Origin: Chloroflexota bacterium
Lineage (GTDB): Bacteria > Chloroflexota > Anaerolineae > Anaerolineales > DRKV01
NCBI GenBank assembly: GCA_011051635.1
Contig: DRKV01000086.1
Location: 1-27,431 of the forward strand
Direction: 5' to 3'
DNA length: 27,431 bases
In this document: piece after piece, positions 189-27,431 of the stretch
Position numbering within the stretch: position 1 is the first letter of the stretch
Layout of the letters: every line of letters begins with the position of its first letter
Translations under genes and position numbers: made by a program
The notes under the pieces: model-generated
Seen by the model: only the letters and a program-made list of their open reading frames with translations
Database searches by the model: none
Told to the model about the DNA's origin: nothing

Positions 189-470
189 CTTCTTGGGAAC
201 TCTTCTCGGCCGGGGGAGGGGAAGACTCCCGAAGTTGCTGGTTCCCCTCGCATGGCTTGAAGAGCACTTGTGAGCGGTATTCGATGGGAGGAGACCAGAT
301 GGAATATCCCTGCCGATTTTTCTGAAAATGAGCCACTCCGAATCTTGAACCTTCTTGGGCGTAATAACGACGAAGTATTGTAACCCGTAAGTCTTCAAGA
401 GACGCCGCGCATTATTTTGCGGTTTGGTGGCGTCCGTGTATTTTTGATTATTCGAGGAGGTAGTATCACA

Positions 471-8763: not shown

Positions 8764-8869
8764 TTGGTAATCGGGCAACCTGGGGATGGAGAAACCGGGG
8801 AAGCAGGAGATGGGCAGGGATTGGGGAGTGAAAATGTGGGTAACTCAACTGCCCCACTACCCAACTACC
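8764..8869. repeat. Degenerate short-period (~8 nt) intergenic repeat tract
   Basis: caactgcc/ccactacc/caactacc at 8846-8869; looser 8-mers ttggtaat, cgggcaac, ctggggat, ggagaaac, cggggaag, caggagat at 8764-8811. Confidence 0.4.
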
Positions 8870-10064
8870 TCAACAGTACCTCGCGAATCCGCGGCAGCGC
8901 CCAGTCAATGGTAGCCTTGTCAATCACCAGGGGGGGAGCAAAGCGGATGACGTGTTCGTGGGTCTCTTTTGCCAGGATACCGCGTTCTTGCAGGGCCTCG
9001 CAAAAGCGGCGCGCCCCGCCGGCCTCGGGCTTCAATTCCACGCCGATGAGCAGCCCTTTGCCGCGCACTTCCTTGACGTATGGGCTGGGGATGGCGCGGA
9101 GTTGCTCCTGGAAGTAAGCCCCCAGGCGGGCGGCGTTCTCAGGCAGGTTTTCTTCCACCAGGACGCGCAAGGCCGCTCTCCCGATGGCCGCGGCCAGGGG
9201 ATTGCCGCCGAAGGTGGAGCCGTGCTCTCCGGGGCGGAGCAGCCCCAGCACGGAGGTATCCGCCACAATGGCCGAGACGGGGTAAAAACCGCCCGAAAGC
9301 GCCTTCCCCAGGATGACGATGTCCGGGCGCACTTCTTCGTGGTCGCAGGCCAGCAATTTGCCGGTGCGCCCCAGGCCGGTCTGGATTTCGTCGGCAATAA
9401 AGAGTACACTGTGCTCATCGCAGATTTGCCGGACGGAGCGCAGATAGCCCTCCGGCGGCACGATGACGCCGGCCTCTCCCTGGATGGGTTCCAGCATCAC
9501 GGCGGCGGTGTGGGGGGTGATGGCCTTCCGAATGGCCTCCGCCTCCCCGTAAGGCACGATGACGAAGCCGGGTGTGAAGGGGCCGAAATCTTCGCGGTAG
9601 AGCGGCTCGGTGGAGAAGGATACGATGGTGATGGTGCGCCCGTGGAAGTTGTTGGCCGCCACGATGATTTCCGCCTTGTGGCGCGGCACCCCCTTGACGG
9701 TGTAGGCCCACTTGCGGGCTACCTTGAGGGCCGTTTCCACGGCCTCGGCGCCGCTGTTCATCGGCAGAGCCATTTCGTAGCCGGTCAGTTCACACAGTTC
9801 CTTGTAGAACAGGGGCAACTGGTCGTTGCGAAAGGCGCGGGATGTGATGGTCAATTTTTGCGCCTGCTCCTGCATGGCCGCCAGGATTTTGGGGTGTACG
9901 TGCCCCTGGCTGACGGCGGAGTAGGCGCTCAGGCAGTCCAGGTAGCGGTTGCCCTCCACGTCGTACACCCAAACCCCCTCGCCGCGGGTGAGCACCACGT
10001 CGAGAGGGTGGTAGTTGTGCGCCCCGTATCGTTCTTCGAGCGCGATGTAATCCTGGGTTTTCAT
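8865..10064 (-). CDS. rocD: Ornithine--oxo-acid aminotransferase (class III PLP), 399 aa
   Basis: Start at ATG 10064 ([21 protein letters not shown]), 5 nt after the argF stop; [62 protein letters not shown]. Confidence 0.95.
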
Positions 10065-10069
10065 GGCGC

Positions 10070-10990
10070 TTACCCCAGCAGTTGCGCCAGAATGGCCTTC
10101 TGGGCGTGGAGACGGTTGTGCGCCTGCGGGAAGAGACGGGAGTGCGGTCCGTCGGCTACCTCGTCGGTGATTTCCTGCCCCCGGTGGGCGGGGAGACAGT
10201 GCATCACAATCGCTTCGGGGGCGGCTTCGGCTACCAGGGCGGCGTTGACCTGGTACGGCGGGAAAACTTTGGCGCGTCGGGCGGCTTCCGCCTCCTGCCC
10301 CATGCTCGTCCAGGTGTCGGTGTAGATTACCTGCGCGCCTTTGACCGCCTCGTGCGGGTCGCGCAGGAAAGCGAGGGCGCTGCCCGATTCGGCGGCGAAC
10401 TTGCGGGCTTCGGCGATGCTCTCGGCGGGCATGTCGTAGCCTTCCGGGTTGGCGATTGTGAAATTGGCGCCCAGTTTGGCGCATACGTGCATCAGCGAAA
10501 CGGCCACGTTGTTGCCGTCGCCCACGTAGGTCACGTTGATACCCTTGAGGGTGCCGAATTCTTCCTGGATGGTGAGGGCGTCGGCCATCGCCTGGCAAGG
10601 GTGGTTGTAGTCGCTCAGGCCGTTGATGACGGGGATGCTGCTCCACTTCGCCAGTTCGACCACGTGTTCGTGGGCGAAGACGCGCGCCATGACGGCCTGC
10701 ACGTAGCCGGAGATGACGCGGGCCACGTCGGCGATGGATTCGCGCTTGCCCAGGCCGATTTCGGCGGGGGAAAGGTAGAGGGCGTCGCCGCCCAGATGCC
10801 GCATTGCCATGTCGAAAGAGACGCGCGTCCGCAAACTCGGCTTCTGGAAAATCATAGCCAGCACTTTGCCCTGCAAGATGGGCTTGTTGCCGCCCGATTT
10901 CCATTCGGCTTTCAGTTCTTCAGCCAGGTCGAGTAAATCCTGTAGTTCTTGAGATGGGTAGTCGGAAATTGCCAGGAAATCCTTTTTCAT
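10070..10990 (-). CDS. argF: Ornithine carbamoyltransferase
   Basis: [51 protein letters not shown]; SD AGGAG at 10997-11001. Confidence 0.96.
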
Positions 10991-11220: not shown

Positions 11221-14200
11221 GTGCTTTTGCAACAACTCAAACGTACCCTGCACCTGACCGATGCCCGCTGGGCGGCGTGGCTGTGGCGCGACCCGGATGG
11301 ATGGCGCTTCGGTATTCACGCGGGACTGACCCGCCCCCGCCGCAGAAGGCTGGAGACGCTTTTGGCGCGTTCATCCTGGCACAACTGGCTCTCGGGGGCG
11401 TTGACCAACAGACGCTCCCGCCGCCGCAAGGTGGATGCCGCCGCCTCCGAACTGGATTGCGGACGGGTGTACGCTTTCCCCGCAGAGAACGGGCAGGGAT
11501 GTCTCCTTGTGGGGGCGGATGAACTGGAGACTTCGGAACGGCATTTCTGGCAAATCCTGGCCTGGGAGCCGCCTTCCCAGCCGGTCAAGTACCATCCCGA
11601 ACCGGCGGCGGGGCAAGGCGCGCCGCGTCCCTTCGTCCTGCACACCTCGGTCTCCTACGATTTGGGCGTCGTCCTGGAGCAGGTTCTGGTTTTCCTCTCC
11701 GCCCGTCTGCCCTGCGCCGGCGGCCTGATTGCCCTGCGCTCCGGCAGACGTTTTGAGGTGCGTGCCGTCTGGCGCTTGCCGGACGCCTGGATTGGACAGG
11801 ATGTGGATTTGGAATCCGCCCTCGCCTTGCGGCGGATGGTCTCCCGCCGGCGGGTAGCCCTGTGGGAAGGCCCGCAAATGTGGAAAGGCGCGCCCGCCAA
11901 CGGAGAGCCGGACTGGGCTTTTGGGGAAAGCACCCAGTGGCTCGGCGTACCCCTCGTCCTGGGGCGGCGCGTCATCGGCGTGGCTTTGCTGGCAGCGCGC
12001 CCCGGTGAGCGCTTCAGCGAGGGCGATGTGCTCCATTTGCCGCGCCAGGCGGCTCAGGTGGCGCATCTTGTGGAGAATGCCATCGTCTTCGACGAGGCCG
12101 GGCGCTACCTCCGGCAACTTGCCCTGGTGAGCGAACTGGCCGCCGAGACGGTCGGCGAAGTGCGGCAGGAGAAAGTCATCCGCCGGGTGCTGCACCGCCT
12201 GGAGCGCACCTTCGACCACACCCAGGCCGCCCTCTTGACCCCTGGCGAGGAAGGCAACGGGGTGCTGCAAGCCTACGGGAACCGGGAGCCCCTCTGGGGC
12301 GCGCCCGTCGCACCGGACGCCCTTCCGGGGGGCGCGGCTTCGCTGGAGCGGGGCATCCCTTTACAGGGGGAGACGCTCCCCGAAGGGCTGGATTTCCCCT
12401 GGTTCCGCCGCCTTTCTTACGCTTACGTCCTCATGCCGATGCGCTACCGCGGGCATTTCATCGGGGCTATCCACATGGGGCGGACGCGTCCGCAGCCTTT
12501 CTCCCGGCAGGAGGAACAGGCTCTGGTCATGCTGGCGGGGCATCTGGCGGGCTTGCTGGAGAACGTGCGCCTGCACGCCGAGACACAGCAGCGCGCCGAG
12601 AACCTGGCTCTCATCCACACCGTCGTGCAGCGGGTGGTCGGCCTGACCTCCGTGGAGGAGATTGCCCAGGCCGCCGCCGAATTGATGGCCGCCAACTTTG
12701 CCTTCGACCGGGTGCTGATAGCCGGTATGCCCCCTTCCGGCGAACAGTTCACCGTCCTGGGATTGGCCGGCCTGGAAGTCGCTCCCGGCCTGCGGGGGGC
12801 GCGCTTCCCCGCCGCCTGCGGCCTGCTGGGGCGCGTCTTGCTGGATGGACGCAGTTTGCGGATTGGAAACCTGGACACAGACATGGCCTGCGAATCTCTG
12901 GAGCCGTTGCCGCAATCTGCGGTGATGGCGGTGCCGCTCTACGACGGAGAACGGGTGTTTGGAGCCTTGTATGTCGAACGGGTCGCCAAACCCTTCTCTT
13001 CTAACGACATGATAGCCTTGCAGGCCCTGGCGGGTGTGCTTTCCAGCGTGATGGTCAACGCCCAGCGCTATCAGCAGTTGCAAACCAGCGTGCGCCAATT
13101 GCAGGCCGTGCGGGAGACCGCCCTGGATATGGCGGGAGAGATGGATTTGGAAGTCCTCCTGCGGCGCGTCGTGCATCGGGTGCGCTTGCTGCTGGAAGCC
13201 AAAGGCGCGGAACTGGGGCTTGTGGATTCGGAAAGCGGCATGGTGCGGGTTGTCGTTTCCGAAAACCCCTGGCAGGATTACACGGGGCAGGAAGTCCCTA
13301 TGATGGGGGGCATCATCGGCCAAGTAGCCGCCCTGGGAGAACCGATGGTGGTCGCCGATTACAATCGCTGGGAGGGGCGTCTGCGCCCGGAAGGGCAGGA
13401 GCCTTTCTCCGCCGTGGTAGCCGTGCCCTTGCGCCTCAAGGGACAGGTGATGGGCGTCCTTTCGGTGAGCGACGATACCCCCGGACGCACTTTCCGCAGC
13501 GACGATGTGCGCCTGCTGGAGTTGCTGGCCCCGCAGGTCGCGGTCTTCATCCGCAACGCCCGCCTGTACCGCGAATTGCAGGAGCGGATGGCCGCTCAGC
13601 AAGAGACCGAACAGCAATTGGTGCGCTCGGCGCGGCTGGCTGCCGTGGGCGAGATGGCCGCCGGGGTAGCCCACGAACTCAACAACCCTCTTACCACAGT
13701 CTCCGGCTTCGTGGAACTGGTGCTGGATGAGTTGCCGGAGGATTGGCCGCAGCGCGCCGACCTGGAACTGGTGCTCAAAGAGGCGCGGCGCGCCCGCGGC
13801 GTGGTGCGCAATTTGCTGGAATTCTCCCGCCCCGGCGAAAACCTCCGCGTGCGTACCGATATGAACGCCCTGATTGGCGAAGTCCTGACCCTCGTGCAGC
13901 ACCTCATCCGCACCACCGGCGTGGAATTGCGCCTCCAGTTTTGGGAGGAAGTTCCCTGGGTGCGGGTTGACCCCAACCAAATCAAGCAGGTGCTTCTCAA
14001 CCTGGTACACAACGCTTTGCAGGCCATGCCGCACGGGGGAGTGCTCACCATCCAGACGGCGCACGGGCGCCGAGACAAAGAACGCTGGCTCACCGTGCGC
14101 GTTCAGGATACCGGCGTGGGCATCCCCGAGGAAAACCTGGCCCGCATCTTCGAACCGTTTTTCACCACTCGTCCCGTCGGTGCAGGAACCGGCCTGGGGC

Positions 14201-14316
14201 TTTCGGTCAGTTACGGCATCATCAAGGAACACGGCGGTTACATTGAGGTTGAAAGCCTCCTCGGCAAGGGGAGCGTCTTCCCCGTTTACCTGCCGGTAGA
14301 GAAAGACCATGCCTGA
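11221..14316 (+). CDS. Cytoplasmic multi-GAF sensor histidine kinase (4 GAF plus degenerate N-terminal GAF-like region, HisKA, HATPase_c)
   Basis: Four vPL...G.l......FS..D...L..lA...N motifs; [11 protein letters not shown]; [36 protein letters not shown]; no TM segment seen. Exact start uncertain. Confidence 0.92.
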
Positions 14317-15883
14317 AACCAAAATCCTCGTAGTGGATGACGAACCGGGCATCGCCCACCTGTGCGAGCGTCTTCTGCGGCGCGCCGGTTACGAGGCCCG
14401 GGCGGTCACCAACCCCCGCCGCGCCCTGCTGCACTTGCAAACCCACCCCGTGGATTTGCTCCTTGTGGACATCCGCATGCCCGGCATGGACGGCTTCGAA
14501 CTGATGCGGCAGGCGCGTCAAACTCTCCCCGACCTGGCAGTCGTCATCATGACCGGTTTCGGCACGGTGGAGACGGCCATCGAAGCCCTGCGCCTGGGCG
14601 CGGAGGGCCTGATTCTCAAACCTTTCTCCCGGGGGGCGGAACTGGTGGAAAGCGTCGCCCACGCGCTGGAAGCACACCGCCGCTCCCGCGATGCCCAGCG
14701 CCTCCGGGCCTTGCGCCCTCTCTTCGAAGTCACCCGCCGTCTCTTCTCCGAGACCGACCCGGAACAGTTGCGCCTTCTCCTTGTGGAGGCGGTTTGCGAA
14801 CATCTGCAATGTGAACATGCCGCCCTGTATGCCCTCCCTCGGAGTGGGAACGCGCCCCCGGAGTTGGAAGCCGCCCGCGGAGAGGTTCCGCCCCCCGGCG
14901 GCGGGTACGTGACGCATTTGTGGGAGGCCGCCGCCCGAGGGGTGGTAGCCCCTGGCAAAACGGATTCCGCCCCCCTCCCCCCCGAAATGGGGTACGCTTC
15001 CCTGGTGGCTGCCGCCGTTTCGGGGCCGCAAGTTTCCCGCCTTTTGCTGGCCGCCCGCAATCCCGAAAATCCTCCTTTCAGCGAAGCCGACCTGGAACTG
15101 CTGGTCGTCCTGGCGCATCAGGCCGCCGCCGCCCTGGAAAACGCCCGCCTGTACGCCGAACTGCGGGCCTACCTCCGGCAGGTGGAAGAATCGCAGCAAC
15201 TTCTCCTCCAGGCGGAGAAAATGGCGACCGCTGGCCGCCTGACGGCCTCCATCGCTCACGAAATCAACAATCCTCTGCAGGGGGTGCGGAACTGCCTGCA
15301 CCTGGCCTCTCGCGCCGAACTTTCCGAAATGGAGCGGGCAGAATACCTGCAACTGGGGCGCGAGGAACTCGACCGCCTGATGACTACGGTGCAGCGCATG
15401 TTGGAGTTTTACCGCCCCTCCGCCGTAGAGCGCAGCGCCGTAGACCTCCACGCCCTGATAGAGCGGGTCGTCAAATTGCTCCACCGCGAAATGGAGCAGC
15501 AGAACATCCGCCTGCACCTTTCCCTGAGCGAAGACCTGCCCCGACCCTGGGCGGTGCGCGACCAGATACAGCAGGTACTTCTCAACCTGGTACTCAACGC
15601 CGTCGAAGCCATGCCGGAGGGCGGCGATTTGCACATCGAGACGCGGTACAATCATGACGAGGTGCACATCACCGTGGCGGATAGCGGTCCCGGTGTGCCC
15701 CCTCACCTGCGCGGCCAAATTTTCGAGCCGTTTTTCAGCACGAAGGACGATGGCAGCGGCCTGGGCCTGACCGTCTGCGACGGCATCATCACCGCCCACG
15801 GGGGCCGCCTGGAACTGCTGGATTCGCCGGACGGCGGGGCGCACTTTCTGATTGCGCTACCCCTCCACTCGTCGGAGGAGTAA
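14309..15883 (+). CDS. Hybrid kinase REC-GAF-HisKA-HATPase_c
   Basis: ILVVDDE, LLVDIRMP, IMTGFG, ILKPF; GAF ending FSEADLELLVVLAHQAAAALENARLY; AHEINNPLQ; LNLVLNA, DSGPGV, GSGLGL. Overlaps the upstream kinase by 8 bp. Confidence 0.93.
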   Translation: MPETKILVVDDEPGIAHLCERLLRRAGYEARAVTNPRRALLHLQTHPVDLLLVDIRMPGMDGFELMRQARQTLPDLAVVIMTGFGTVETAIEALRLGAEGLILKPFSRGAELVESVAHALEAHRRSRDAQRLRALRPLFEVTRRLFSETDPEQLRLLLVEAVCEHLQCEHAALYALPRSGNAPPELEAARGEVPPPGGGYVTHLWEAAARGVVAPGKTDSAPLPPEMGYASLVAAAVSGPQVSRLLLAARNPENPPFSEADLELLVVLAHQAAAALENARLYAELRAYLRQVEESQQLLLQAEKMATAGRLTASIAHEINNPLQGVRNCLHLASRAELSEMERAEYLQLGREELDRLMTTVQRMLEFYRPSAVERSAVDLHALIERVVKLLHREMEQQNIRLHLSLSEDLPRPWAVRDQIQQVLLNLVLNAVEAMPEGGDLHIETRYNHDEVHITVADSGPGVPPHLRGQIFEPFFSTKDDGSGLGLTVCDGIITAHGGRLELLDSPDGGAHFLIALPLHSSEE

Positions 15884-15885
15884 TT

Positions 15886-15950
15886 CAGCGTACAGGGTAC
15901 GCTGTACGTAGTACGCCGCACATCGCACGTCGCACGTTTCGCACGTCTCA
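15886..15950. repeat. Degenerate heptamer tandem array with an internal hairpin
   Basis: cagcgta cagggta cgctgta cgtagta cgccgca catcgca cgtcgca cgtttcgca cgtctca; perfect 8-bp stem cagcgtac-agg-gtacgctg at 15886-15904. Confidence 0.8.
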
Positions 15951-15969
15951 CATTTTCTGGAGGTAATGC

Positions 15970-16755
15970 GTGAAAGGTAAAATCCTGGTTGTAGATGACG
16001 AACCCACCGCCCGCCGTTCCTGGCGCGATATTCTGCGTCTGGAAGGGTATCAGGTAGAGACGGCTGCGGACGGCAAGGCAGCCCTGGAGGCGATGAAGAA
16101 GACCGAATTCGATGTCGTCCTCCTGGATTTGAAGATGCCGGGCATGGGCGGGCTGGAGGTGCTGCGTACCGCCTCGAAACTGCATCCCGATACCCAAATC
16201 ATCGTTTTGACGGCGCACGGCTCGCTGGATTCGGCCATCGAAGCCTTGCGGCAGGGAGCGCACGATTACCTTCTCAAACCGGCCTCCCCGGAGGACGTCC
16301 TGGACAGCGTCGCCGGGGCGTTGGCTATCCGTGCTGAAACGCAACACAAGCGTTTGCTGCTGGGGCAACTCGAATCTTCCCTCCAGCAACTCAAGGATGC
16401 CGAAGGCTTGGAGGGGCAGCCCAGAGTCAATGTGCAGGTGGTCACGTTGGGCAACGGCATCATGATGGACATGGCGCGCCGTGAAATCTGGCGCGGCTCG
16501 GACAAGGTGACGCTGACCACCACGGAAGGCAAATTGATGCAGGTCTTGTGGGCGAACCGCGGACGGGTAATGACCCACCGGGAACTGGTGCTGCTCGTGC
16601 AGGGGTATGAAACTTCCGACTGGGAGGCCCCCGAAGTGCTGCGTCCCCTGGTCAGCCGCCTGCGCCGCAAACTGGCCGTCTTCCCCGGCGGGCGCGAGTG
16701 GATAGTCAACGTGCGCGGCACCGGTTACGTCTTCGAAGGCGTAGAGGAAAGATGA
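15970..16755 (+). CDS. Response regulator, receiver plus OmpR/PhoB-type winged-helix DNA-binding domain
   Basis: ILVVDDE, LLDLKMP, VLTAHG, LLKP; C-terminal LTTTEGKLMQVL...LVSRLRRKL...IVNVRGTGY; SD GGAGG at 15959-15963, GTG start. Confidence 0.94.
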   Translation: MKGKILVVDDEPTARRSWRDILRLEGYQVETAADGKAALEAMKKTEFDVVLLDLKMPGMGGLEVLRTASKLHPDTQIIVLTAHGSLDSAIEALRQGAHDYLLKPASPEDVLDSVAGALAIRAETQHKRLLLGQLESSLQQLKDAEGLEGQPRVNVQVVTLGNGIMMDMARREIWRGSDKVTLTTTEGKLMQVLWANRGRVMTHRELVLLVQGYETSDWEAPEVLRPLVSRLRRKLAVFPGGREWIVNVRGTGYVFEGVEER

Positions 16756-17612
16756 ACCCGCAAGATACGGGATACAGGAAGAAAACGATGACACGCACCC
16801 TGGACGAACTAACCCCCTTGCTGCAAGCCTTCCCCGAGGAGGAACGCCGCCTGATTTTGGAGCAGGCGGCGCGTTACGACCGCCTTCTGGCGCGACTCCC
16901 TATGGCTGGCGCGGGAGAACGGCGCGAAAAACCCCTCGCGGGCATCCTGGCGCTCAACGGAGCATCGGGCGCGGGGCAGAGTTATGTGATGAAGCGGGTT
17001 GCCCGCCTGCTGGAAGCGCGTTCCATCACCCTGCCTCGCATCTATCTCCTGGCGACGCGCAAGCCGCGTCCCGACGAGGGGTACAAGAACCCTTACATCT
17101 TCGTCGAGGCTGTCGAGGGCGGCTGGAGGGATATCTACCATCCCGAGACGGTTTATCGCCAGGAGGACATCTACTACCGCTATCAATCCCGCCCCGGTGC
17201 GGAGAACGCCATCCTGCTCTCGGATGCGCGCCTGGCGCGGGAGCGCATCATGTACTTGGAAACCGTCATCCCCACCCTGCTGCACATTCGCGAACACACC
17301 ATCAGGGGGATTCCCGCCTGGAAAGACAACCTGCGGATTGTGTACCTGGCCGCTCCGGATGGGTACGAGTGGGTTTACCGTCTGCTCAACCGCGAAGCGG
17401 GGAAACTCGTCGAGGAAGGCTACCGGCGCACGCTTCTGGGCCGGTTGGCCTCCTCGCTGGATGACATGGAACTGGCGGCAGAACACCGCATTCCTTGCGT
17501 GCTGAACCATTACGGCAAAGCCGAGCAGGCCGCCGAAGAAATCCTGAGCGTTTGGGGGTTGGGGGTCACCGCGGCTGCCAGGGAAAATCCGGGGGAAGCG
17601 AAGGGGGGCTAA
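16752..17612 (+). CDS. Guanylate-kinase-like P-loop protein with degenerate Walker A (GASGAGQS), ~286 aa
   Basis: ATGA overlap with the regulator stop (alternative ATG 16788). ILALNGASGAGQS; ATRKPRPDE..NPYIFV resembles GK TTRxPRxGE..YxFV; IVYLAAP and RLLNR resemble the GK core/lid. Confidence 0.7.
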   Translation: MNPQDTGYRKKTMTRTLDELTPLLQAFPEEERRLILEQAARYDRLLARLPMAGAGERREKPLAGILALNGASGAGQSYVMKRVARLLEARSITLPRIYLLATRKPRPDEGYKNPYIFVEAVEGGWRDIYHPETVYRQEDIYYRYQSRPGAENAILLSDARLARERIMYLETVIPTLLHIREHTIRGIPAWKDNLRIVYLAAPDGYEWVYRLLNREAGKLVEEGYRRTLLGRLASSLDDMELAAEHRIPCVLNHYGKAEQAAEEILSVWGLGVTAAARENPGEAKGG

Positions 17613-18552
17613 TCCAGCGCAACCAGCCGTGCGGCGTAGGGCGCGGCGGGTTGCGGTCTATGCTCGCCAGGAGGATGTTTACCATCAGGAGGATAGCCCC
17701 CGTCCATTGCAAAACGGTCAGGCGCTCGTGCAGAAGGAGGTGCGCTCCCAGCACGGTCACCAGCAATTCCCCCAGCCCAATCAGGGCGGTTTGCATTCCT
17801 CCCAAGTGTTTGACCCCCAGGAAGAGTGTCAGACGAGACACAAACGTCACCAGCGTCAAACCCAGAACGGCGCCCCAGGCTTGGGGCTGAGGCTCCGGAA
17901 TGACTTTCCCGAAACTGGTGAACAGGTAGGCCGAAAGCACCACCATGCTCATCGAGAGCAGAGTGTAGAGCGTCACGGTTGGGGCGGGCATGTCGTAGAG
18001 GACACGCTGGTTGATGGGGAGATGCAGGGCGTAGAGCGCCGAGGCTCCCAACATCAGGAAGATGCCAACCCAGTCCACCTGCCCCGAGGCGGTCTGTAAG
18101 AGCAGATAAACGGCGGGGATAGCCAGCATCAGGCGGGCGATGGTGATACGGTTCGGGGGTTGACCGTCCAGCCACAACCATCCGGCCACAAAAAGGGGGT
18201 AAATGGAATACAGCAGTTGCCCTAAACTGGCATCGATGCGCCCCAATGCACTGTAAAAGAGCAGAGAACCCAGCCCGTTGACTCCCCCGGCCAGGGCGCA
18301 GCCCAACAGCCCGGCGGGATAAATGTACAGATAACTGCGTTTGAAGAGCAGTAAACTGAGCGCAAGCAGCAGCGCAGCCAGGATGGTACGCAACGCCACA
18401 ACCGTCAGCGGATGCATCCCAAAGACGATGGCTTGTTTCCCGAAGACAGGAGTCATCCCCATGAAAAGCGCCGATGCAAGGGCCGCTCCCAGCCCTTGCA
18501 TCCGTTTTTTTTCTTGGTGGCGGTCGTGTCCCTGGGCGGTCTTACTCATCAT
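17566..18552 (-). CDS. DMT/EamA family transporter
   Basis: About 10 hydrophobic helices in two repeats; ALRTILA, LLFYSALGRIDASLGQLLYSIYPLFVA, FLGVKHLG...LLLHERLTVLQWTGAILL. Start uncertain (18552, 18549 or 18501). Confidence 0.9.
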   Translation of the reverse strand: MMSKTAQGHDRHQEKKRMQGLGAALASALFMGMTPVFGKQAIVFGMHPLTVVALRTILAALLLALSLLLFKRSYLYIYPAGLLGCALAGGVNGLGSLLFYSALGRIDASLGQLLYSIYPLFVAGWLWLDGQPPNRITIARLMLAIPAVYLLLQTASGQVDWVGIFLMLGASALYALHLPINQRVLYDMPAPTVTLYTLLSMSMVVLSAYLFTSFGKVIPEPQPQAWGAVLGLTLVTFVSRLTLFLGVKHLGGMQTALIGLGELLVTVLGAHLLLHERLTVLQWTGAILLMVNILLASIDRNPPRPTPHGWLRWISPPSLPPDFPWQPR

Positions 18553-18605: not shown

Positions 18606-20285
18606 CTATTCATCTACCAGCGAGCGGATTTCATCGGCTAAATCATCGCTCATGAACTCCCCTTTCTGCATCAGGGAGTGCACTTGTCCTTTCAGGCGGC
18701 GTTTCTCCGCCGGCGTGAGCGTCTTGGCCGTTACCACGATGACGGGGATTTCGGCGGTCTCTTCGTTTTCCTTGAGGGCGTCCAGCACGCCAAAGCCGTC
18801 CACTTCGGGCATCATCAAATCGAGAATCATCAAGTCCGGCTTCTCCCTGCGCGCCAGTTCGATGGCCTGGCGTCCATTCTCGGCCTCGAAGATGGTGAAG
18901 TCTCCCTGGGCTTGCAGGATGCGCCGAATCAGGCGGCGGGCGTCGGCAGTGTCGTCCACGATAGCGACCCGCGGGTAGCGGTCAGCGGTGAGACGATGGA
19001 GGGCGGAGAGCAGCCCCTCTTCGGGGCCGGGTTCCCGAACCGCGGCGGCCTGCCGCGAAACAACCAGGTTGCGCGCCCATCCCTCTCCGAGAACGGTGCG
19101 CTCGATGGGAATGGTGTGCCCCGTGCAATTGACGACCACAACCTCGTCCGGGCGAATCTCGCCGTTGCGCACCATGTTGAACAAACCGGCAAAGGCTACT
19201 GCGGTAGCGGGTTCCACCGAAAGCCCTTCCATCTTGGCGAGGATGTGCATGGCCCGGAAGGCTTCCTCGTCGCTCACGCTGGCGAAGGTTCCTCCATACG
19301 TTTTGGCGTGCTGGTAAAGCAGGTTGTAGGTTCGTCCCGGCGCGCCGGTCGCCAGGGTAGCGATGTGGGTGCGCGGTGAGGGGATAGGGGTGGCCTCCGG
19401 CTGGTCGGCCTCCCAGGCCCGCGCCATAGGGGCGCATCCGGCGGTCTGGATGTTAGCCAGGGCGGGGATTTTGTTCACCAAACCCATGGCATACAGTTCG
19501 CGGAAGCCTTTGGCGACCCCTTGCGGCCCCAATCCGCCGCTGACGGACTGGACGTACCAGTCCGGGGCGCGCCACGGGGCGGAGCCGTCTTCCGGGGGCC
19601 CCAGCCTTTGGGTCAGTTGTTCGGATATTTCCAGCGCCAGGGTTTTCATGCCCTCCACGGAGGGGATGGATTTGGAGCCGCGAGAGTAGTAAAGACCGCG
19701 CTGGCGGGCAAACTCGGCGGCCATTTTCTTGGCCTGGTCGTAAGTGGCCGTCACTTTGACCACTTGTGTCCCGTACAAGGCCACCTCGCGCATCTTTTCC
19801 GGCGGCACCAGGCTGGTCAGGAAAGCCCACAACTTGATGCCGGCGCGGGCGGCGTAAGCGGAGAAGGAAATGGCGACGTTTCCCGTGGAGGCCAATACCG
19901 CCTCTGTAATGCCCGCTTCCTTGAGCGCCGAGATTTCCAGGGCGGCCTGGCGGTCTTTGAAGGAATTTGTCGGTCCCTGACGCTCATCCTTGATGTAGAT
20001 GTTTTCGTTGCCCAGCATCATTCCCAGGTTGACCGCCCGTACCAGGGGAGTACCGCCTTCTCCCAGGGTCAGGTCTTCGTTGACGTTTCGGATGGGGAGC
20101 ACTTCCCGATAGCGCCACAAGTTAAAAGGACGTTTTTCCAGGCGCTCAATGAATCCCTCCCGGATGCTTTGGAGGTCGTAATGGGCCTCAAGCCAGATGC
20201 TTCCGCATTTGGGGCAGGCATATTGCATGGGGTGATAGGTGCTGCGGTGTCCGCAGTCCATGCATTGGGCGGTAAAGTGGGACAT
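18606..20285 (-). CDS. Threonine-synthase-like PLP enzyme (N-terminal Zn ribbon) fused to a C-terminal response-regulator receiver domain
   Basis: CMDC...CPKC; WRYREVLP, LGEGGTPL, KDERQGPTNSFKDR (PLP Lys codon 19956-19958), ASTGN, EGMKT, EGLSVEPATA; then VAIVDD, MILDLMMP, IVVTA, MQK (receiver, ~18606-18974). SD AAGGAA at 20292-20297. Confidence 0.92.
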   Translation of the reverse strand: MSHFTAQCMDCGHRSTYHPMQYACPKCGSIWLEAHYDLQSIREGFIERLEKRPFNLWRYREVLPIRNVNEDLTLGEGGTPLVRAVNLGMMLGNENIYIKDERQGPTNSFKDRQAALEISALKEAGITEAVLASTGNVAISFSAYAARAGIKLWAFLTSLVPPEKMREVALYGTQVVKVTATYDQAKKMAAEFARQRGLYYSRGSKSIPSVEGMKTLALEISEQLTQRLGPPEDGSAPWRAPDWYVQSVSGGLGPQGVAKGFRELYAMGLVNKIPALANIQTAGCAPMARAWEADQPEATPIPSPRTHIATLATGAPGRTYNLLYQHAKTYGGTFASVSDEEAFRAMHILAKMEGLSVEPATAVAFAGLFNMVRNGEIRPDEVVVVNCTGHTIPIERTVLGEGWARNLVVSRQAAAVREPGPEEGLLSALHRLTADRYPRVAIVDDTADARRLIRRILQAQGDFTIFEAENGRQAIELARREKPDLMILDLMMPEVDGFGVLDALKENEETAEIPVIVVTAKTLTPAEKRRLKGQVHSLMQKGEFMSDDLADEIRSLVDE

Positions 20286-20322
20286 GCTGGCTTCCTTATG
20301 TTTGGTTATGGTGAAGTTCAGG

Positions 20323-20411: not shown

Positions 20412-23400
20412 TCAGGATGTGGAACTATCTCTTTCTGCGTTGCCCAGATTGGCAAGCAGTTCTTCAAGATGGTTCAAGAAGTCTTCTTCGTGAAGTTCGG
20501 ATTTGTGGATAAAGGCCTGACTCTTCTCCTTGAGGTAGGCGCGCTGCTCGTCGGTCAGGTCGCCGCCGGTCAGAATGAGAACTGGCAGGTTGTGCAAGCG
20601 CGGGTCGCTGCGGATAGTCTCCAGCAGGGTGAAGCCGTCCAGGTCGTGCATATACAGGTCCAGGATGACGGCATCTGGGGTGCTGCTTTGCAGGACGCTT
20701 AGAGCGGCTTGTCCTCCGGGAGCGAGCATAGGCTCGTAGGCGGTGTGCTCCTCGATGATGCGCTCCACCAGGCGCAAATCGTCGTCGGAGTCATCCACTA
20801 CCAAGACGCGGTGGATGTCGCCGTTTCTATCCAGCCGTTGCAAAGCGCGTACCAGGTCCTCCTCCAGAATAGGTTTGACCAGGTAATCGGTGGCACCCAG
20901 GCTGAAGCCCTTTTCTTCTTCCCGCACGATACTGCATACGAGTACGGGGATGTCCCGGGTTTCGGGGGTGCTCTTCAAGGCTTCCAATACGGCCCAGCCA
21001 TCTATGTTGGGCATCATGATGTCCAGTGTGATGGCGTAGGGATGCAGTTCCCTGGCACGTTCTACGGCCTCAGCCGGGTTGGTGAGGGCTACTACCTGGT
21101 ATCCGTGGTTGCTCAGGTAGCGCTCATACAAGTTGATAACCTGAGTGTTGTCGTCTATAGCGAGAACTACTTTGGGGGCGGGAGATTCTGCTTCCTCGGG
21201 GGCGGCTTGGGGAGCCTCCTCGTCTGGGGGCGCATCCTCTGGTGGAGACGGCGAATCTTCCGGAGAGGTAATGGGCAACGTGAACCAGAAGGTGCTGCCT
21301 TTCCCTACTTCGCTTTCCACGCCAATTTGACCGCCGTGCATTTCGATGAAACGCTTGGAAATGGAGAGGCCCAGGCCGGTGCCGCCCGTCTTGCGGGTAG
21401 GCGACCCGTCCACCTGGGAGAAGGGCTTGAAGAGTTTGCTCTGGTCTTCGGGAGCGATTCCGGGGCCGGTGTCCTCGACGGCGATGTACACTTCCTGCCC
21501 GCCCTTTTGGGAGGGGCGCACTTTGGCAATTACCTTGATATGCCCTTCTTCGACAAACTTGGAGGCGTTGGATATCAGGTTCAGCAACACTTGCCGGACG
21601 CGGGTATTGTCGCCAACCACAACGGGCAGGTTGTCATCGACTTCTCGCAGCAATTGGATGGGCTTGTCCTTGGTCAAGCCAACCGCGGTGGACATGACGC
21701 TCTTCACCATCATGTTGAGGTCAATCTCTTCTTGGGCAATTTCCATCTTGCCCGCCTCAATCTTGGAGAGGTCGAGGATGTCATTGATAAGCGAGAGCAG
21801 GTGCTGTCCGGAATTGTAGATAGCACTCAGGTCTTGTTCTTGCAGTTCGTTGATGGGACCGTCAATGCCCTTCAGGATGACGCGCGAAAAACCGATGATG
21901 GAGTTGAGCGGCGTGCGCAACTCGTGTGACATATTCGCCAGGAACTGAGTCTTGAGGGTGTCCACCTCTTTCAAGCGTTCCGCGGTTTCGCGCTGTTCCT
22001 GATAGAGACGGGCGTTCTCCAGCGATACCGCTGCCGAAGATGCTACTGCCATGGCCAGGTCTAACTGACTTTCGGAGAAATGCCGCTTTTCATCGGGAAC
22101 TTCCACTTCAACAACGCCCAGGGCTTCACCTTTGGCGGCCAGCGGGACGATGAGCAGCGTTTGCAGCCCGTGTTCTCGCATGTAGCGGCGTTCTTCAGGG
22201 TGCAGGTCGGTATCCGATGTGAGCGTGACTGGCTCGAGGGTTTGCAGCACCTCGTCAAGTAATTTGGCCCTCCACAGGTGAGATATTTCTCCTATCTCAT
22301 GGAGGGGGGCAGGGGCATCTTTGCGCCTGTGGATACCAACGATGCGCATCGTCGGACGGTAAACCTCGTTGAATTCGTCATATTCGTTTAGGATGACCGA
22401 CAGAGTACAGGAGGGGGCATCCAACAAGCGGGAAAACTGTTCTGTGATGATGCGAGCCAGCCCTTCGATTTCCAGGGGCGCACTGGAGAGGGTACGGCTG
22501 ATTTCGAACAGCAGGCTCATTTCCTGGGCTCGCTGGTTCGCCAGTTCGTAAGAGCGGGCGTTATCTACGGCGATAGCCAACTGGTCGGAAAGGATTTGCA
22601 GAGCGGGCAGGTCTTCTTGGGTGAAGGCCTGGGGCCGGGTGCTGTGCAAATCTACCACCCCAATGATGCGGTTGCCGACTTGCAGCGGCAGACAAAGTTC
22701 TGAGCGGGATTTTGGCAGGTCCTCAGGTACCGAGAAACGCTCGTCGGTTTGTAAATCATCTACGTTGAGTGTTTGCCCTGTGGAGGTCACCTGCCCAATG
22801 ACCGTGGAGGCCCCAACGACGTGCTGCGTGGCTTTCCTCAGGAGGGCTTCTGCCCCGGCCCCGGCGGCAGAACGGATGACCACGTTTAGCCGAGATTCAT
22901 CCATCAGGTAGATGGCGCCGTGATAGAGGTTGAAACGTTCCCGAATCAGCGTAATGGCGCGGTCCAGCAGTTCTCCCAGGGAGAGAGTGCCGGTGGTCTC
23001 GCGGGCAATTTGTGAGGCGGTCTGCAATTGGAGGGCGCGGCGCTCGCTCTCCTGACGGGCCTCACGTTGAGCCAGGTATGCCCGGCGGCGGGCGACTACT
23101 TCAGCGAGAGGCCGCAGCAAGTTGCGAAGCAGGAAATCTTCTTCTTCGGTGAAACTGTGCGGCTGGCGCCAATTGAGGATGGCAAGCCCCTGGAGCCTCC
23201 CGCCGCTCTGCAGGGCGAGCATAGCCATGCCGCGCATGCCGGCTTGCTTGGCTATCTGGCGGGCGGCGGAGGGAGCCTGGGGGTTCTCCAAAACGTCTTC
23301 GAAAAAGATGGGCGCGTCCAGGCGGATGCTATTCTGGAAGGCCTGCATTTCTTTCGTGAGCAAGTTCACCCGGTAAGGGTTTTCATCGTGAAGCACCTGC

Positions 23401-26400
23401 CCGTCCAGCCAGTGGGCGACTGAATCGGAATAGAGCAACTTCCCCTGCTCGTCGGAGTAAATGTAACGCAAGGTAATCAGGTCGGGGCGGCGTTTCTCAT
23501 CAGCCGCGACCAGGCTCAGGGCAGCCACGATTTCATCTTCGTTGTTGGCTTGCGAGAGCGCGGTTTGCACTTGCGCCAGGTGCTCCAACTGGGCGGCGCG
23601 TTGTTGGGCCGCCTCCGTATTGCGCAGGTTCTGCATGACCGCCGCGGCCTGGACCGCCAGAGTTTGCAGACGACGGAGTTCGTCCTCGGGGAAGCGGGTT
23701 GGCTTGGTGTAAACCGCGTTGATGTAGCCAATCCACTGCCCGGCTGTCAGCAGGGGGACAAAAATGACACTGGTTCCGCCGAGTTCCTGCGTGTAGAGCG
23801 CACGGGTATTCTCGTCCAGCCGGGGGTCGGTGCGCGCATCCTCAATGATGGTAGGCTGGTTAGAGCGCAAGATATGCCGCGCCGCGGGGAATTCGGACAG
23901 GCGGTAACGGACAGGTAAGCCCATTGCTCCTTGGGGACGCCAGAAAGTGTGAGCAATGCTCCATTCGGGCATCTCGTCTATCCAGGGGCGGTTGAAAAGG
24001 TTGATGGAAACCAGGTTGTCAACCTGGCTGAGGATGGTGCGCTCTCGCAAGGCTTCCAGTACGTCCTCGTAAGACTGGGAGGCGTTGAGGGCCGCGCTGG
24101 CCTCGTAAAGGGATTCCGTCTCGCGGAGGCTGGTTTGGGCCTGGTCGAACAAGCGGGCGTTCTGGATGGCGATGGCAACCTGGTCGGCCATGGTTTGCAG
24201 GACGGCGATGTCTTCCTGCGAAAAGGCGTTGGTGAATTCGCTCTGGATGGTCATCGCCCCGATGACCTCGCCGCGGGCAATCAGGGGCAAGGCCAATTCG
24301 GAGCGGGTATCGGGCAGGAGGGGGTTCTGGAAGCGCCCCGTCTCTTGCAAAACGTCCAGCGAAACGCGGGCCTGGCCGTGGGCCACGCACTGTCCAATCA
24401 TGGAAGTTCCGCCGATTTCCAATTTATGCCCGCGTGCCTTCATCTGCAAGCCGGCGACGCCGGTTCCAGCACGTAATACTGCCCAGCGACCGGGTTCCTG
24501 GGTCCACTCTCCCTCTTTGTCCACCAGGAACAGACCGGCGTAGTAGAGGTCAAAACGTTCCTGCACCAGGTTGACGATTTCTTGAATCAGTTCGTTGACA
24601 TCCAGGATGCTGCTGGCGGCACGGGACACTTCGGCAGCCGTCTGGAGTTGGCGGGCACGGCGCTGCGTTTCCTGGAGCAGGTTGTAGTTATCCAGCGCGA
24701 TGCTGGCCTGCACGACGATAGATTCGTAGAACAGGATTTCTCGCTCGGTGAAGGAGTGCGGCTGCTGGTAGGCGACAAGCAGTTGCCCGGGAATGCCGTC
24801 TCTGGTGCGCAGAGGCACGGCGTTCATAGCCGCCACGGAGAATTCAAGCAGCAGAGAGCGCTCTTCGGGAGTGAATTGCGGGTCGTTGGCGACATCGTCG
24901 CTGGTGACGCGCTTCCCTGCCTGTAATTGCCGGGTGTAGGGGTACAGGTCTGTAGGGAATAAAGTGCCGTCCTCAGGCGCCGAGACATTCGGCTGGGTGC
25001 GGTGATAAGCCTGTTCCAGAAACGATTCAGCACCCATGTGTTTGAAGCGCTGGATAGCGGCCACGTCGGGGGCGTTGAATTCCTGGCAGGTTTCCAGCGC
25101 GGCTTCGAAGATACTCTGTTCGCTTTGGGCCTGTACCAGGCTTTGGGTAGCCCGGAAGAGAAGAGTAGCGTCCTGTGCTTGTTGGCGGGTGGTTTCCAGG
25201 TTGCGCAAGTTTTGGATGGCAATAGCGGCCTGGCTGGCTAATGCCATCAGGCGGCGCTGCTCTTTTTCCGGATAAACTCTCCGCTCTCTGGAAATAGAAG
25301 TTGCCATCCCTATCCAGCGCCCTGCTACCACGAGAGGGACGAACATGCCGCTCTTGGCTTTGTAGACCTCCGTGTACAGGTGGCGTAAATTCTCGTCTAC
25401 ATCCGGATGGGTACTGAAATCCTCTATGACGGTGGGGCTGTCCGGATGCAGGAGCTGTTTTGCTGAAGCGAAAGCGCTCAGAGAGTAGCGTTCCTGAAGG
25501 AATCCGGCGGGTACGGACGCGTCTGTGATTTCTCGACCCAGAACTATCCACCACTGGGCGGGATTATCCGGCTCCCAGGGGCGGTCGAAAATGCCGATGT
25601 TGGCGTTGGCATCTCCCGCGCCCAGGATGGTGTGGCGGTACAGCACATCCAGAATGTCGGCGTATGTCTGGGCTGTGTTGAGTTCCGCGCTGGCAGTGTA
25701 GAGCGACTCCGTCTCTTTCAAACTCTCCTGGATTTGCTGGAAGAGACGGGCGTTCTGAATGGCGGTGCTGGCTTGGGCGAGAATGCTTTGAACGGGGCGG
25801 ATTTCATCCGAGCGCAAGGGGCGTTTGGCGGAATGTATCAGAACGTCAACTATCCCGATAACCTCATCGCCCAGCAGGATGGGGAAGAACGCGATGGATA
25901 CGACGCCGGCTTGTTTGAGACGTTCGTGAAGCGGCGCGGTATGGGGGTTGTGCTGGGCATCGGGAACTTCCAGTATCTTTTTGGTTGCCAGAACTTCTTG
26001 AATAGCGGGAAAGCGGTGAATTTCCATGCCCGCCTCGACGGGGCGTACCCCTTTCTCGGTGTGTACGCTGTGGACGACGACGCCGTCTCTTTCCTCGTTG
26101 ACAAGGCCGATGCCTATATCCATCTTCAGGTATTCATGCAGAGCAGATGCGATGGTGTGGAGAGTCTCGTCCAGGTCCAGGGAGGAGGCCAACCGACTTA
26201 CCAGGCGGTTGATAAAGGCCAATTCATCGGTGCGGCGGGTACTTTCCTGGAAGAGACGGGCGTTCTCCAGAGCGTTGGCAATCTGGTCGGCCATTGTTTG
26301 CAGGACGGCGATGTCATCCGGACTGAAGTCGCCCGGACGCTCGCTCTGGAAAGTCATCGCCCCGATGACCTCGCCGCGGGAAATCAGGGGCAGCGCCATT

Positions 26401-27431
26401 TCAGAGCGCGTCTTGGGCAGCAAGGGGTTGACGTAACGTCCAACGTCTCCGCTTTCGTCGCCGCGCCAGATTTGTGCCTGCTTGTTGAGGATGCAACGCC
26501 CAATCATGGACTTGGCGTCCAGGGCCAGTTTGTGTTGACGGCTGAGCATTTTCTGTCCCGCTTCGCCCGTACCGGCGCGCAGCACAGCCCAGCGATTGGC
26601 TTCTCCTGTCCATTCTCCCGTGCGGTCTACGAGGAAAAGACCGACGTAGTACAGATTGAAGCGCGAGCGAATCAGGGCGGCGGTGCCGTGAGCCAGTTCA
26701 TCAGGTTCCAGGATACTGCTGGCGGTGCGGGAGACCTGAGCGGCGGTTTGGAGTTGCAGACTGCGGCGCTCGATAGCCCGGCGGATGGCTTGTTCGCTCA
26801 AATAGGCGCGACGGGTGGCTATCAGCGCCGCGAGCGGTTCAATCAACTCGTTGAGATAAAAGGCCTCGTCCGGCGTGAGTTCGTTTTCTCCGGGCCAGGT
26901 GATGAGCAGCAATCCGTGCCACGCGCCCGTGCTGTAGAGGGGGAGAATGGCGGCACTCTGTCCTAAAGGAACTTGCAAAAGACGCTGACACAACCCGGTT
27001 AAAGGGTCGTCCGCCTTCAAGGCGGAGGCCATATACAACTTGTCGCGTCCCTCTGTCCACAACGGGAGGGTTTGGAAGGCGGCCAATTCCACCGGTTGCG
27101 CGTCCTCTGTGGGGACGATAAGACCGTCCATCCATTGGGCTTGCATGGTGGCCGCCACGGGGGTGCCGCGGTCGTTGTTATCCAGGTAAAAGAGGGCAAT
27201 GTGCTCCGGCGGGGTGGAAATATCCAGCGCCATGCTAAAAGCAGAGATGATGTCGCCTTCCGACTGGGCCAGCGAGAGGCTGTCCTTGATGAGAGAGAGC
27301 CACTCCAGTTGGCGGGTGCGTTCCTGGGCCTGTTCGAAGAGCAACCGGCTGTTGAGAGCAGTGGCGGCCTGGGCGGCGACTGCCGCATAGCGTTCCTTGT
27401 CCTGTTGGGTGAAAAATGTGGTTTTGGGCCA
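20412..27431 (-). CDS. Giant cytoplasmic hybrid histidine kinase (>=10 GAF, HisKA, HATPase_c, two receivers); 5' part outside the window
   Basis: Frame is open to the window edge (WPKTTFFTQQDKERYAAVAAQAATALNSRLLFEQ, the end of another GAF), so >=2339 aa. FLANMSHELRTPL; LNLISNA, DTGPGI, GGTGLGL; REC1 IDD/LDIMMP/KP; REC2 VDD/LDLYMH/LTGG/HK. Confidence 0.95.
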   Translation of the reverse strand, partial: WPKTTFFTQQDKERYAAVAAQAATALNSRLLFEQAQERTRQLEWLSLIKDSLSLAQSEGDIISAFSMALDISTPPEHIALFYLDNNDRGTPVAATMQAQWMDGLIVPTEDAQPVELAAFQTLPLWTEGRDKLYMASALKADDPLTGLCQRLLQVPLGQSAAILPLYSTGAWHGLLLITWPGENELTPDEAFYLNELIEPLAALIATRRAYLSEQAIRRAIERRSLQLQTAAQVSRTASSILEPDELAHGTAALIRSRFNLYYVGLFLVDRTGEWTGEANRWAVLRAGTGEAGQKMLSRQHKLALDAKSMIGRCILNKQAQIWRGDESGDVGRYVNPLLPKTRSEMALPLISRGEVIGAMTFQSERPGDFSPDDIAVLQTMADQIANALENARLFQESTRRTDELAFINRLVSRLASSLDLDETLHTIASALHEYLKMDIGIGLVNEERDGVVVHSVHTEKGVRPVEAGMEIHRFPAIQEVLATKKILEVPDAQHNPHTAPLHERLKQAGVVSIAFFPILLGDEVIGIVDVLIHSAKRPLRSDEIRPVQSILAQASTAIQNARLFQQIQESLKETESLYTASAELNTAQTYADILDVLYRHTILGAGDANANIGIFDRPWEPDNPAQWWIVLGREITDASVPAGFLQERYSLSAFASAKQLLHPDSPTVIEDFSTHPDVDENLRHLYTEVYKAKSGMFVPLVVAGRWIGMATSISRERRVYPEKEQRRLMALASQAAIAIQNLRNLETTRQQAQDATLLFRATQSLVQAQSEQSIFEAALETCQEFNAPDVAAIQRFKHMGAESFLEQAYHRTQPNVSAPEDGTLFPTDLYPYTRQLQAGKRVTSDDVANDPQFTPEERSLLLEFSVAAMNAVPLRTRDGIPGQLLVAYQQPHSFTEREILFYESIVVQASIALDNYNLLQETQRRARQLQTAAEVSRAASSILDVNELIQEIVNLVQERFDLYYAGLFLVDKEGEWTQEPGRWAVLRAGTGVAGLQMKARGHKLEIGGTSMIGQCVAHGQARVSLDVLQETGRFQNPLLPDTRSELALPLIARGEVIGAMTIQSEFTNAFSQEDIAVLQTMADQVAIAIQNARLFDQAQTSLRETESLYEASAALNASQSYEDVLEALRERTILSQVDNLVSINLFNRPWIDEMPEWSIAHTFWRPQGAMGLPVRYRLSEFPAARHILRSNQPTIIEDARTDPRLDENTRALYTQELGGTSVIFVPLLTAGQWIGYINAVYTKPTRFPEDELRRLQTLAVQAAAVMQNLRNTEAAQQRAAQLEHLAQVQTALSQANNEDEIVAALSLVAADEKRRPDLITLRYIYSDEQGKLLYSDSVAHWLDGQVLHDENPYRVNLLTKEMQAFQNSIRLDAPIFFEDVLENPQAPSAARQIAKQAGMRGMAMLALQSGGRLQGLAILNWRQPHSFTEEEDFLLRNLLRPLAEVVARRRAYLAQREARQESERRALQLQTASQIARETTGTLSLGELLDRAITLIRERFNLYHGAIYLMDESRLNVVIRSAAGAGAEALLRKATQHVVGASTVIGQVTSTGQTLNVDDLQTDERFSVPEDLPKSRSELCLPLQVGNRIIGVVDLHSTRPQAFTQEDLPALQILSDQLAIAVDNARSYELANQRAQEMSLLFEISRTLSSAPLEIEGLARIITEQFSRLLDAPSCTLSVILNEYDEFNEVYRPTMRIVGIHRRKDAPAPLHEIGEISHLWRAKLLDEVLQTLEPVTLTSDTDLHPEERRYMREHGLQTLLIVPLAAKGEALGVVEVEVPDEKRHFSESQLDLAMAVASSAAVSLENARLYQEQRETAERLKEVDTLKTQFLANMSHELRTPLNSIIGFSRVILKGIDGPINELQEQDLSAIYNSGQHLLSLINDILDLSKIEAGKMEIAQEEIDLNMMVKSVMSTAVGLTKDKPIQLLREVDDNLPVVVGDNTRVRQVLLNLISNASKFVEEGHIKVIAKVRPSQKGGQEVYIAVEDTGPGIAPEDQSKLFKPFSQVDGSPTRKTGGTGLGLSISKRFIEMHGGQIGVESEVGKGSTFWFTLPITSPEDSPSPPEDAPPDEEAPQAAPEEAESPAPKVVLAIDDNTQVINLYERYLSNHGYQVVALTNPAEAVERARELHPYAITLDIMMPNIDGWAVLEALKSTPETRDIPVLVCSIVREEEKGFSLGATDYLVKPILEEDLVRALQRLDRNGDIHRVLVVDDSDDDLRLVERIIEEHTAYEPMLAPGGQAALSVLQSSTPDAVILDLYMHDLDGFTLLETIRSDPRLHNLPVLILTGGDLTDEQRAYLKEKSQAFIHKSELHEEDFLNHLEELLANLGNAERDSSTS

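Follow-up and report, generated by a model that had tools for sequence, protein, structure and literature searches.

We found a single open reading frame of 559 aa in which a threonine synthase (ThrC)-like enzyme of the fold-type II pyridoxal-phosphate (PLP) class, its PLP lysine intact, is joined through a linker to a C-terminal receiver domain. A first-pass annotation had proposed this arrangement, and all the residues it named are present. The interval it gave within the window (the whole analysed DNA stretch of 27,431 nucleotides) is exact, but the frame lies on the minus strand: its ATG is at 20285 and its stop codon at 18606-18608, and a plus-strand reading of 18606-20285 is riddled with stops. 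The whole arrangement is, in our judgement, best explained as an enzymatic response regulator, that is, a ThrC-derived paralogue, linked to an EamA transporter, which would be phosphorylated by a neighbouring histidine kinase. We consider this explanation reasonably probable. The relevant features of the window are:

20412..27431, minus strand: multi-GAF hybrid histidine kinase (Pfam), the upstream gene, with a 126-bp gap to the fused gene
20291..20297, minus strand: Shine-Dalgarno-like AAGGAAG, read from the sequence, 5 nt ahead of the fused-gene ATG
18606..20285, minus strand: the whole fused ORF, 559 aa, with zinc ribbon, ThrC-like PLP domain, linker and receiver
20205..20264, minus strand: N-terminal four-Cys zinc ribbon (C8, C11, C24, C27), kept in 58 of 59 relatives
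19119..20069, minus strand: PALP domain (fold-type II PLP), residues 73-389 (Pfam 2e-67; the top Foldseek matches are ThrC structures)
19956..19958, minus strand: codon of K110, the PLP Schiff-base lysine in SFKDR, aligned with K61 of T. thermophilus ThrC and a lysine in 59 of 59 relatives
18972..19109, minus strand: linker, residues 393-438 (roughly 45 aa), of which 410-423 are modelled with low confidence
18609..18971, minus strand: receiver (REC), residues 439-559 (Pfam Response_reg 7.6e-21 at 440-542; CheY-like matches in the PDB at 1e-17 to 1e-19)
18819..18821, minus strand: codon of D489, the predicted phospho-acceptor Asp, an aspartate in 59 of 59 relatives
17566..18552, minus strand: EamA/DMT-family transporter, 328 aa, the downstream gene (Pfam EamA 3e-25), after a 53-bp gap

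Both domains are recognised well above the respective Pfam thresholds. The PALP profile PF00291 scores 228 bits against a gathering cut-off of 35, which together with the Schiff-base lysine K110 places the enzyme in fold type II, and the Response_reg profile PF00072 scores 74.8 bits against 30.2. The receiver holds the acidic pair D444/D445, D489 within LDLMMP, T519 within VTAK and K541 within MQK. An AlphaFold2 model, built on a 41-sequence alignment (mean pLDDT 85.8), shows a confident PLP domain and, at residues 439-558, the (beta-alpha)5 fold of a receiver, with five strands alternating with five helices. Residues 410-423 are disordered in this model, and the linker and helix alpha5 have low confidence. 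At the end of the linker, directly ahead of the receiver, lies a short conserved helix (E423 G424 L425 L426 .. L429).

A fused frame of this kind might have arisen by an assembly error or a frameshift joining two adjacent genes, but the probability of such an artefact is practically negligible. The junction at nt 18972-19109 is crossed, with neither indels nor joints, by Logan contigs from four metagenome runs on hydrothermal vents, which belong to three studies; one or two of the runs may represent the source sample itself. The same continuous frame is found in single-contig genomes and, as hundreds of full-length homologues, in at least 592 species genomes (in a scan with one genome per species). 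The fusion is thus genuine, as the first-pass annotation had assumed; its supposed rarity does not hold. Of 401 sampled genomes of the phylum, 24 belong to one Anaerolineales family, and each of these 24 has a full-length fusion with the same domain order; further full-length fusions are found in several other families at 46-57% identity. The best 80 of the at least 592 relatives all belong to the Anaerolineae, including Anaerolinea, Bellilinea, Longilinea and Thermanaerothrix, and the fusion is carried by Aggregatilineales too. Whether the PALP and Response_reg combination was already catalogued had been left to a domain-database check: it is annotated as PF00291+PF00072, and the best 120 database homologues listed, at 65-100% identity, all carry both domains. 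These homologues are named 'threonine synthase' or 'pyridoxal-phosphate dependent enzyme'.

The label 'threonine synthase', which many JGI and NCBI entries bear, raises the question of what the enzyme does. Its top matches in both sequence and structure are all ThrCs (Foldseek TM by hit 0.82-0.86), and in Swiss-Prot the structures that match best belong to zinc-ribbon archaeal ThrCs, which cover residues 5-391 with 32% identity. With the zinc-ribbon or class I ThrCs of M. jannaschii (Q58860), A. aeolicus (2ZSJ), T. thermophilus (1UIM/1V7C) and M. tuberculosis (2D1F), the fused enzyme has a common fold and ~29-35% identity. It shares with them the N-terminal zinc ribbon, the SFKDR motif and the STGN loop, the last two invariant among its 59 relatives. 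Unlike them, it carries a C-terminal receiver, scores below the equivalog thresholds, has the changed columns listed below and coexists with a canonical ThrC. The TIGR00260 thrC model gives 142.1 bits against a cut-off of 167.1, NF006050 (PRK08197) gives 252 bits against 303, and all other ThrC models likewise stay below their own cut-offs. The same genome encodes a canonical ThrC (L004, 305 bits) plus two more paralogues, and a canonical ThrC of 295-331 bits is present in 5/5 other fusion-carrying genomes, hence in 6/6 checked.

The differences extend into the active site, where alignment with T. thermophilus ThrC gives the following correspondences:

K61 of T. thermophilus ThrC: K110 in the fused protein
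T88: V137
N154: G203
S155: S204
R160: S209 (S/A209 in the family)
N188: G250, with GNAGN replaced by SGG[LM]GP

In the T. thermophilus enzyme, T88, N154, R160 and N188 are ligands of the substrate phosphate, as reportedly described by Omi et al. in 2003. All four are shared without exception by five solved ThrCs and the canonical L004 enzyme, and the four columns are never restored in the 59 fused relatives: V137 is found in 56/59, G203 in 59/59, an arginine at position 209 in 0/59 and SGG[LM]GP in 59/59. Furthermore, M213 occupies the place of T. thermophilus Q164 in 59/59. The remodelled loop nevertheless retains a basic residue (R/K205 in 56/59 relatives, R210 in a second fused paralogue), so that an anionic or phosphorylated substrate, including O-phosphohomoserine, is still conceivable.

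Given the sub-cut-off scores, the four changed columns, the coexisting canonical ThrC and the separate phylogenetic clade described below, the fused enzyme is probably not the housekeeping threonine synthase but a specialised paralogue. It could instead be a second threonine synthase isoenzyme, with its flux tuned by phosphorylation in the way S-adenosylmethionine (SAM) activates the plant enzyme. Besides the matches, the database names and the leftover basic residue in the phosphate-loop region, the intact PLP lysine and carboxylate-binding STGN loop agree with an isoenzyme, as do a few orthologues that barely pass TIGR00260 (168-171 bits). We regard this possibility as unlikely, since the protein falls short of both equivalog cut-offs, the four ThrC-invariant columns are replaced and fixed, the clade is separate and well supported, and a high-scoring canonical ThrC accompanies the fusion in every genome checked. 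ThrC-family paralogues can perform chemistry other than threonine synthesis: MetM of Streptomyces is a thiocarboxylate-dependent homocysteine synthase (PMC12172450), and a Microcystis ThrC has deaminase activity (PMC13759103). Our likening of the fused enzyme to these two is by description, not by sequence. Another ThrC-like paralogue of the same genome (L002 301-1740, minus strand, G000:C285; 479 aa) matches the profiles in two separate stretches, which suggests an insertion; it adjoins an ABC-transporter ATPase. The model closest to this ATPase is 'putative B6 ABC transporter ATP-binding protein', with a score below the model cut-off.

In a maximum-likelihood tree of fused and unfused PLP domains, all fused domains form one clade (support 100/98). 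This clade is nested in a 99/99 clade of unfused enzymes of 376-435 aa that bear the SGGxGP signature, apart from the canonical ThrCs. One unfused 420-aa protein, P0127, is a real protein with 12 cluster members and is nested inside this single fused clade, which indicates that the receiver was gained once and lost once. We had considered P0127 as a link to a cyanobacterial ThrC/MetM lineage; its nearest relatives are fused proteins of Anaerolineae and Aggregatilineales, hence a secondary receiver loss. An unfused 422-aa descendant of the fused clade at L152 5239-6507 has a phycobilisome-linker gene nearby, which suggests transfer into a cyanobacterium accompanied by loss of the receiver. NCBIfam holds no model specific to the unfused SGGxGP-signature enzymes, and the genes around the closest unfused relatives (P0127/P0290, P0136, P0145) yielded no functional clue.

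The receiver of the fused protein appears functional. D/E444, D445, D489, T/S519 and K541 are kept in 59/59 relatives, down to 45% identity, and helices alpha1 (L452, R454, R455, I456, L457, Q458) and alpha4 (K521, T524, E527, L531) are nearly invariant. Helix alpha1 is the usual kinase-docking surface of response regulators. The upstream kinase comprises at least 2310 aa, with its frame open at the window end, and contains about eight GAF domains, HisKA, HATPase_c and two receivers; Pfam detected no HPt domain in it. We compared 20 related loci from several families of the phylum, each with 9 kb of flanking sequence on either side. In 19 of them, the gene immediately preceding the fused one, in the same orientation, codes for a GAF-HisKA-HATPase kinase, and the two genes are separated by -44 to +75 bp. 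At locus L055, the kinase and enzyme genes share 4 bp at the stop of the former and the start of the latter; this pair (L055/G386) had been considered as an in-frame kinase-enzyme fusion and proved to be two separate frames. Two further multi-GAF genes lie upstream on the same strand in related loci.

Based on this gene adjacency in 19 of the 20 loci, cognate phosphorylation of the receiver by the neighbouring kinase is most likely. Receiver similarity was tried as a further line: the idea that the fused receiver is of the same subtype as the terminal receiver of the kinase was dropped as weak, the two being 26% identical. Identity to the first receiver of the kinase is 39%, and to unrelated receivers elsewhere in the genome 45-47%. 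Only one lineage, the P0123/P0274 cluster (L154, L155), was found to have no kinase next to the fused gene, and its fused receiver is degenerate: it lacks the conserved Lys, its MMP motif is changed and Pfam recognises it weakly. This single case is what would be expected if the phosphorylation chemistry were kept only as long as a kinase uses the receiver. In the same two loci (L154 7309-9689 and L155), a DsrE-family sulfur-transfer gene lies divergently upstream of the fused gene, and in L154 an Aminotran_3 gene and a pyruvate kinase gene are found just downstream of the degenerate-receiver fusion.

The adjacent kinase can also be read in the opposite direction. The PLP domain might serve as a ligand sensor, as in GabR/MocR, or the fused protein might act as a phosphate sink or relay for the hybrid kinase, so that amino-acid binding would modulate phosphoryl flow instead of phosphorylation modulating catalysis. 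A C-terminal receiver follows the order of sensor-to-receiver proteins, and the upstream hybrid kinase, which contains two receivers and in which no HPt was detected, leaves room for a relay or sink role. Extra stand-alone receivers, typical of branched phosphorelays, follow the fused gene in other lineages (L055, L060, L061, L153). We nevertheless judge this reversed logic quite improbable: the PLP domain keeps its catalytic apparatus complete and unvarying, beyond what binding needs, the conserved EamA partner suits a small-molecule product, and the unfused descendant P0127 retains the enzyme domain alone.

In longer architectural variants (703-812 aa), the PLP domain precedes two receivers, and the next gene encodes a stand-alone receiver; they occur at L055 8546-10657 (minus strand), L068 5572-8010 (minus strand) and L153 8001-10148. 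A seemingly N-terminal-receiver REC-PALP protein in L055 was discarded, as Pfam finds PALP alone in it and the receiver is a separate stand-alone ORF between the genes.

The pairing of kinase and fused enzyme recurs in a second fused paralogue, which is 47-50% identical and present in about nine of the genomes. In 5/5 loci, its gene begins 0-2 bp downstream of a GAF kinase gene. Other genes replace EamA there: a stand-alone receiver follows in at least two of the checked loci, and a PRK08197-type ThrC-like enzyme in three. The true NF006050 members beside this second paralogue score about 580 bits. A ThiS-like sulfur-carrier gene beside ThrC-like genes, including the PRK08197-type neighbour, was not found in the loci examined.

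At loci of the first type, the EamA gene is directly downstream of the fused gene in 14/20 cases and within 1.5 kb in 3 more; it is missing or displaced in 6/20. On the coding (minus) strand of the window, no terminator-like site was found between the kinase, the fused gene and the EamA gene. Convergent with this group, a plus-strand two-component operon (window 11221-17612) encodes a GAF kinase of 1031 aa, a REC-GAF-kinase of 524 aa and an OmpR-type regulator of 261 aa, and its first three genes are kept beside EamA in many related loci. A 304-aa ORF with a faint guanylate-kinase match (E 3.3e-4) overlaps the end of the regulator. Elsewhere in the window, a minus-strand class-III aminotransferase gene (8865-10904) has an N-terminal extension of ~290 aa lacking a Pfam match, a pyruvate kinase gene is found at 4739-6172, and the plus strand at 417-4622 encodes a 1401-aa putative surface protein with SdrD B-like, DUF11, CarboxypepD_reg and GEVED domains.

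The conservation of all five receiver residues, the kinase upstream in nearly all loci and the recurrence of this pairing in the second paralogue make phospho-control of the enzyme plausible. As judged from sequence and gene order, a signalling pathway thus probably switches an amino-acid reaction directly. The ThrC-derived zinc-ribbon PLP enzyme with its flexibly tethered C-terminal receiver would, as an enzymatic response regulator, most likely be phosphorylated at D489 by the multi-GAF kinase encoded just upstream, and phosphorylation may then alter its activity post-translationally. Coupling could most plausibly run through the conserved alpha4-beta5-alpha5 face of the receiver, although this is a guess. 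In view of the flexible linker and the conserved alpha4 face, we propose either receiver dimerisation across the PLP dimer or the release of an inhibitory contact. Predicted docking of the receiver (425-559) on the PLP domain (1-400) gave a score of 0.00, which is not evidence either way. The chemistry is probably an elimination or replacement at the beta or gamma carbon of an amino acid whose side chain carries an anionic group, and the EamA protein, presumably co-transcribed, may move the product or the substrate of the enzyme.

Classic enzymatic response regulators include CheB, PleD/WspR and RpfG. Like them, the fused protein carries an intact receiver and a catalytic domain in one chain and is paired with a histidine kinase; it differs in the C-terminal position of the receiver and in its output, a fold-type II PLP enzyme. 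A metabolic enzyme as output had been thought exceptional. The PALP-receiver protein is real, but it falls into a class already recognised: receivers fused to standard metabolic enzymes occur repeatedly (Galperin and colleagues; PMC5847659), and it has been proposed in general terms that such fusions bring metabolic enzymes under the control of the environment (PMC5847659). Our literature searches found no published work on the PALP-receiver architecture itself.

Two other systems attach a regulatory or receiver-like element to a PLP enzyme. Plant threonine synthase (A. thaliana 2C2B), which is among the structural matches, is likewise a ThrC-fold enzyme with an appended element, which in the plant enzyme sets the activity. 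There, the element is a SAM-binding N-terminal extension on a true ThrC, whereas the fused enzyme has a phosphorylatable receiver instead. Amino-acid decarboxylases of fold type I, for example M. tuberculosis Rv2531c, carry an N-terminal receiver-like domain (PMC12329521) and thus combine, as the fused protein does, a PLP enzyme with a receiver-fold domain. They differ in PLP fold and in the N-terminal position of the domain, and no phosphorylation is described for them (PMC12329521), whereas the five phosphorylation residues of the fused protein are conserved.

The kinase, the enzyme and the transporter may together form a post-translationally gated unit for making and exporting a compound, an idea that we put forward tentatively and regard as rather doubtful. 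The GAF array would read a cytoplasmic signal, the receiver of the enzyme would become phosphorylated and synthesis would be switched on; the product, a non-proteinogenic amino acid or an amino-acid-derived signal, would be secreted by the EamA transporter. If this were true, the Anaerolineae would possess a class-wide two-component pathway with a secreted metabolite, not transcription, as its output.

To our knowledge, two-component systems have nearly always been studied as transcription switches, and we know of only few characterised enzymatic outputs, such as methylesterase and cyclic-nucleotide enzymes. The 'threonine synthase' label on the fused proteins should be read with caution, as it is attached to a separate paralogous clade that exists in addition to the real ThrC. 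Should the enzymatic response regulator proposed here prove correct, it would clearly exemplify direct control of primary or specialised amino-acid chemistry by phosphorylation, conserved together with a dedicated kinase in hundreds of species of a phylum that is abundant but little studied.
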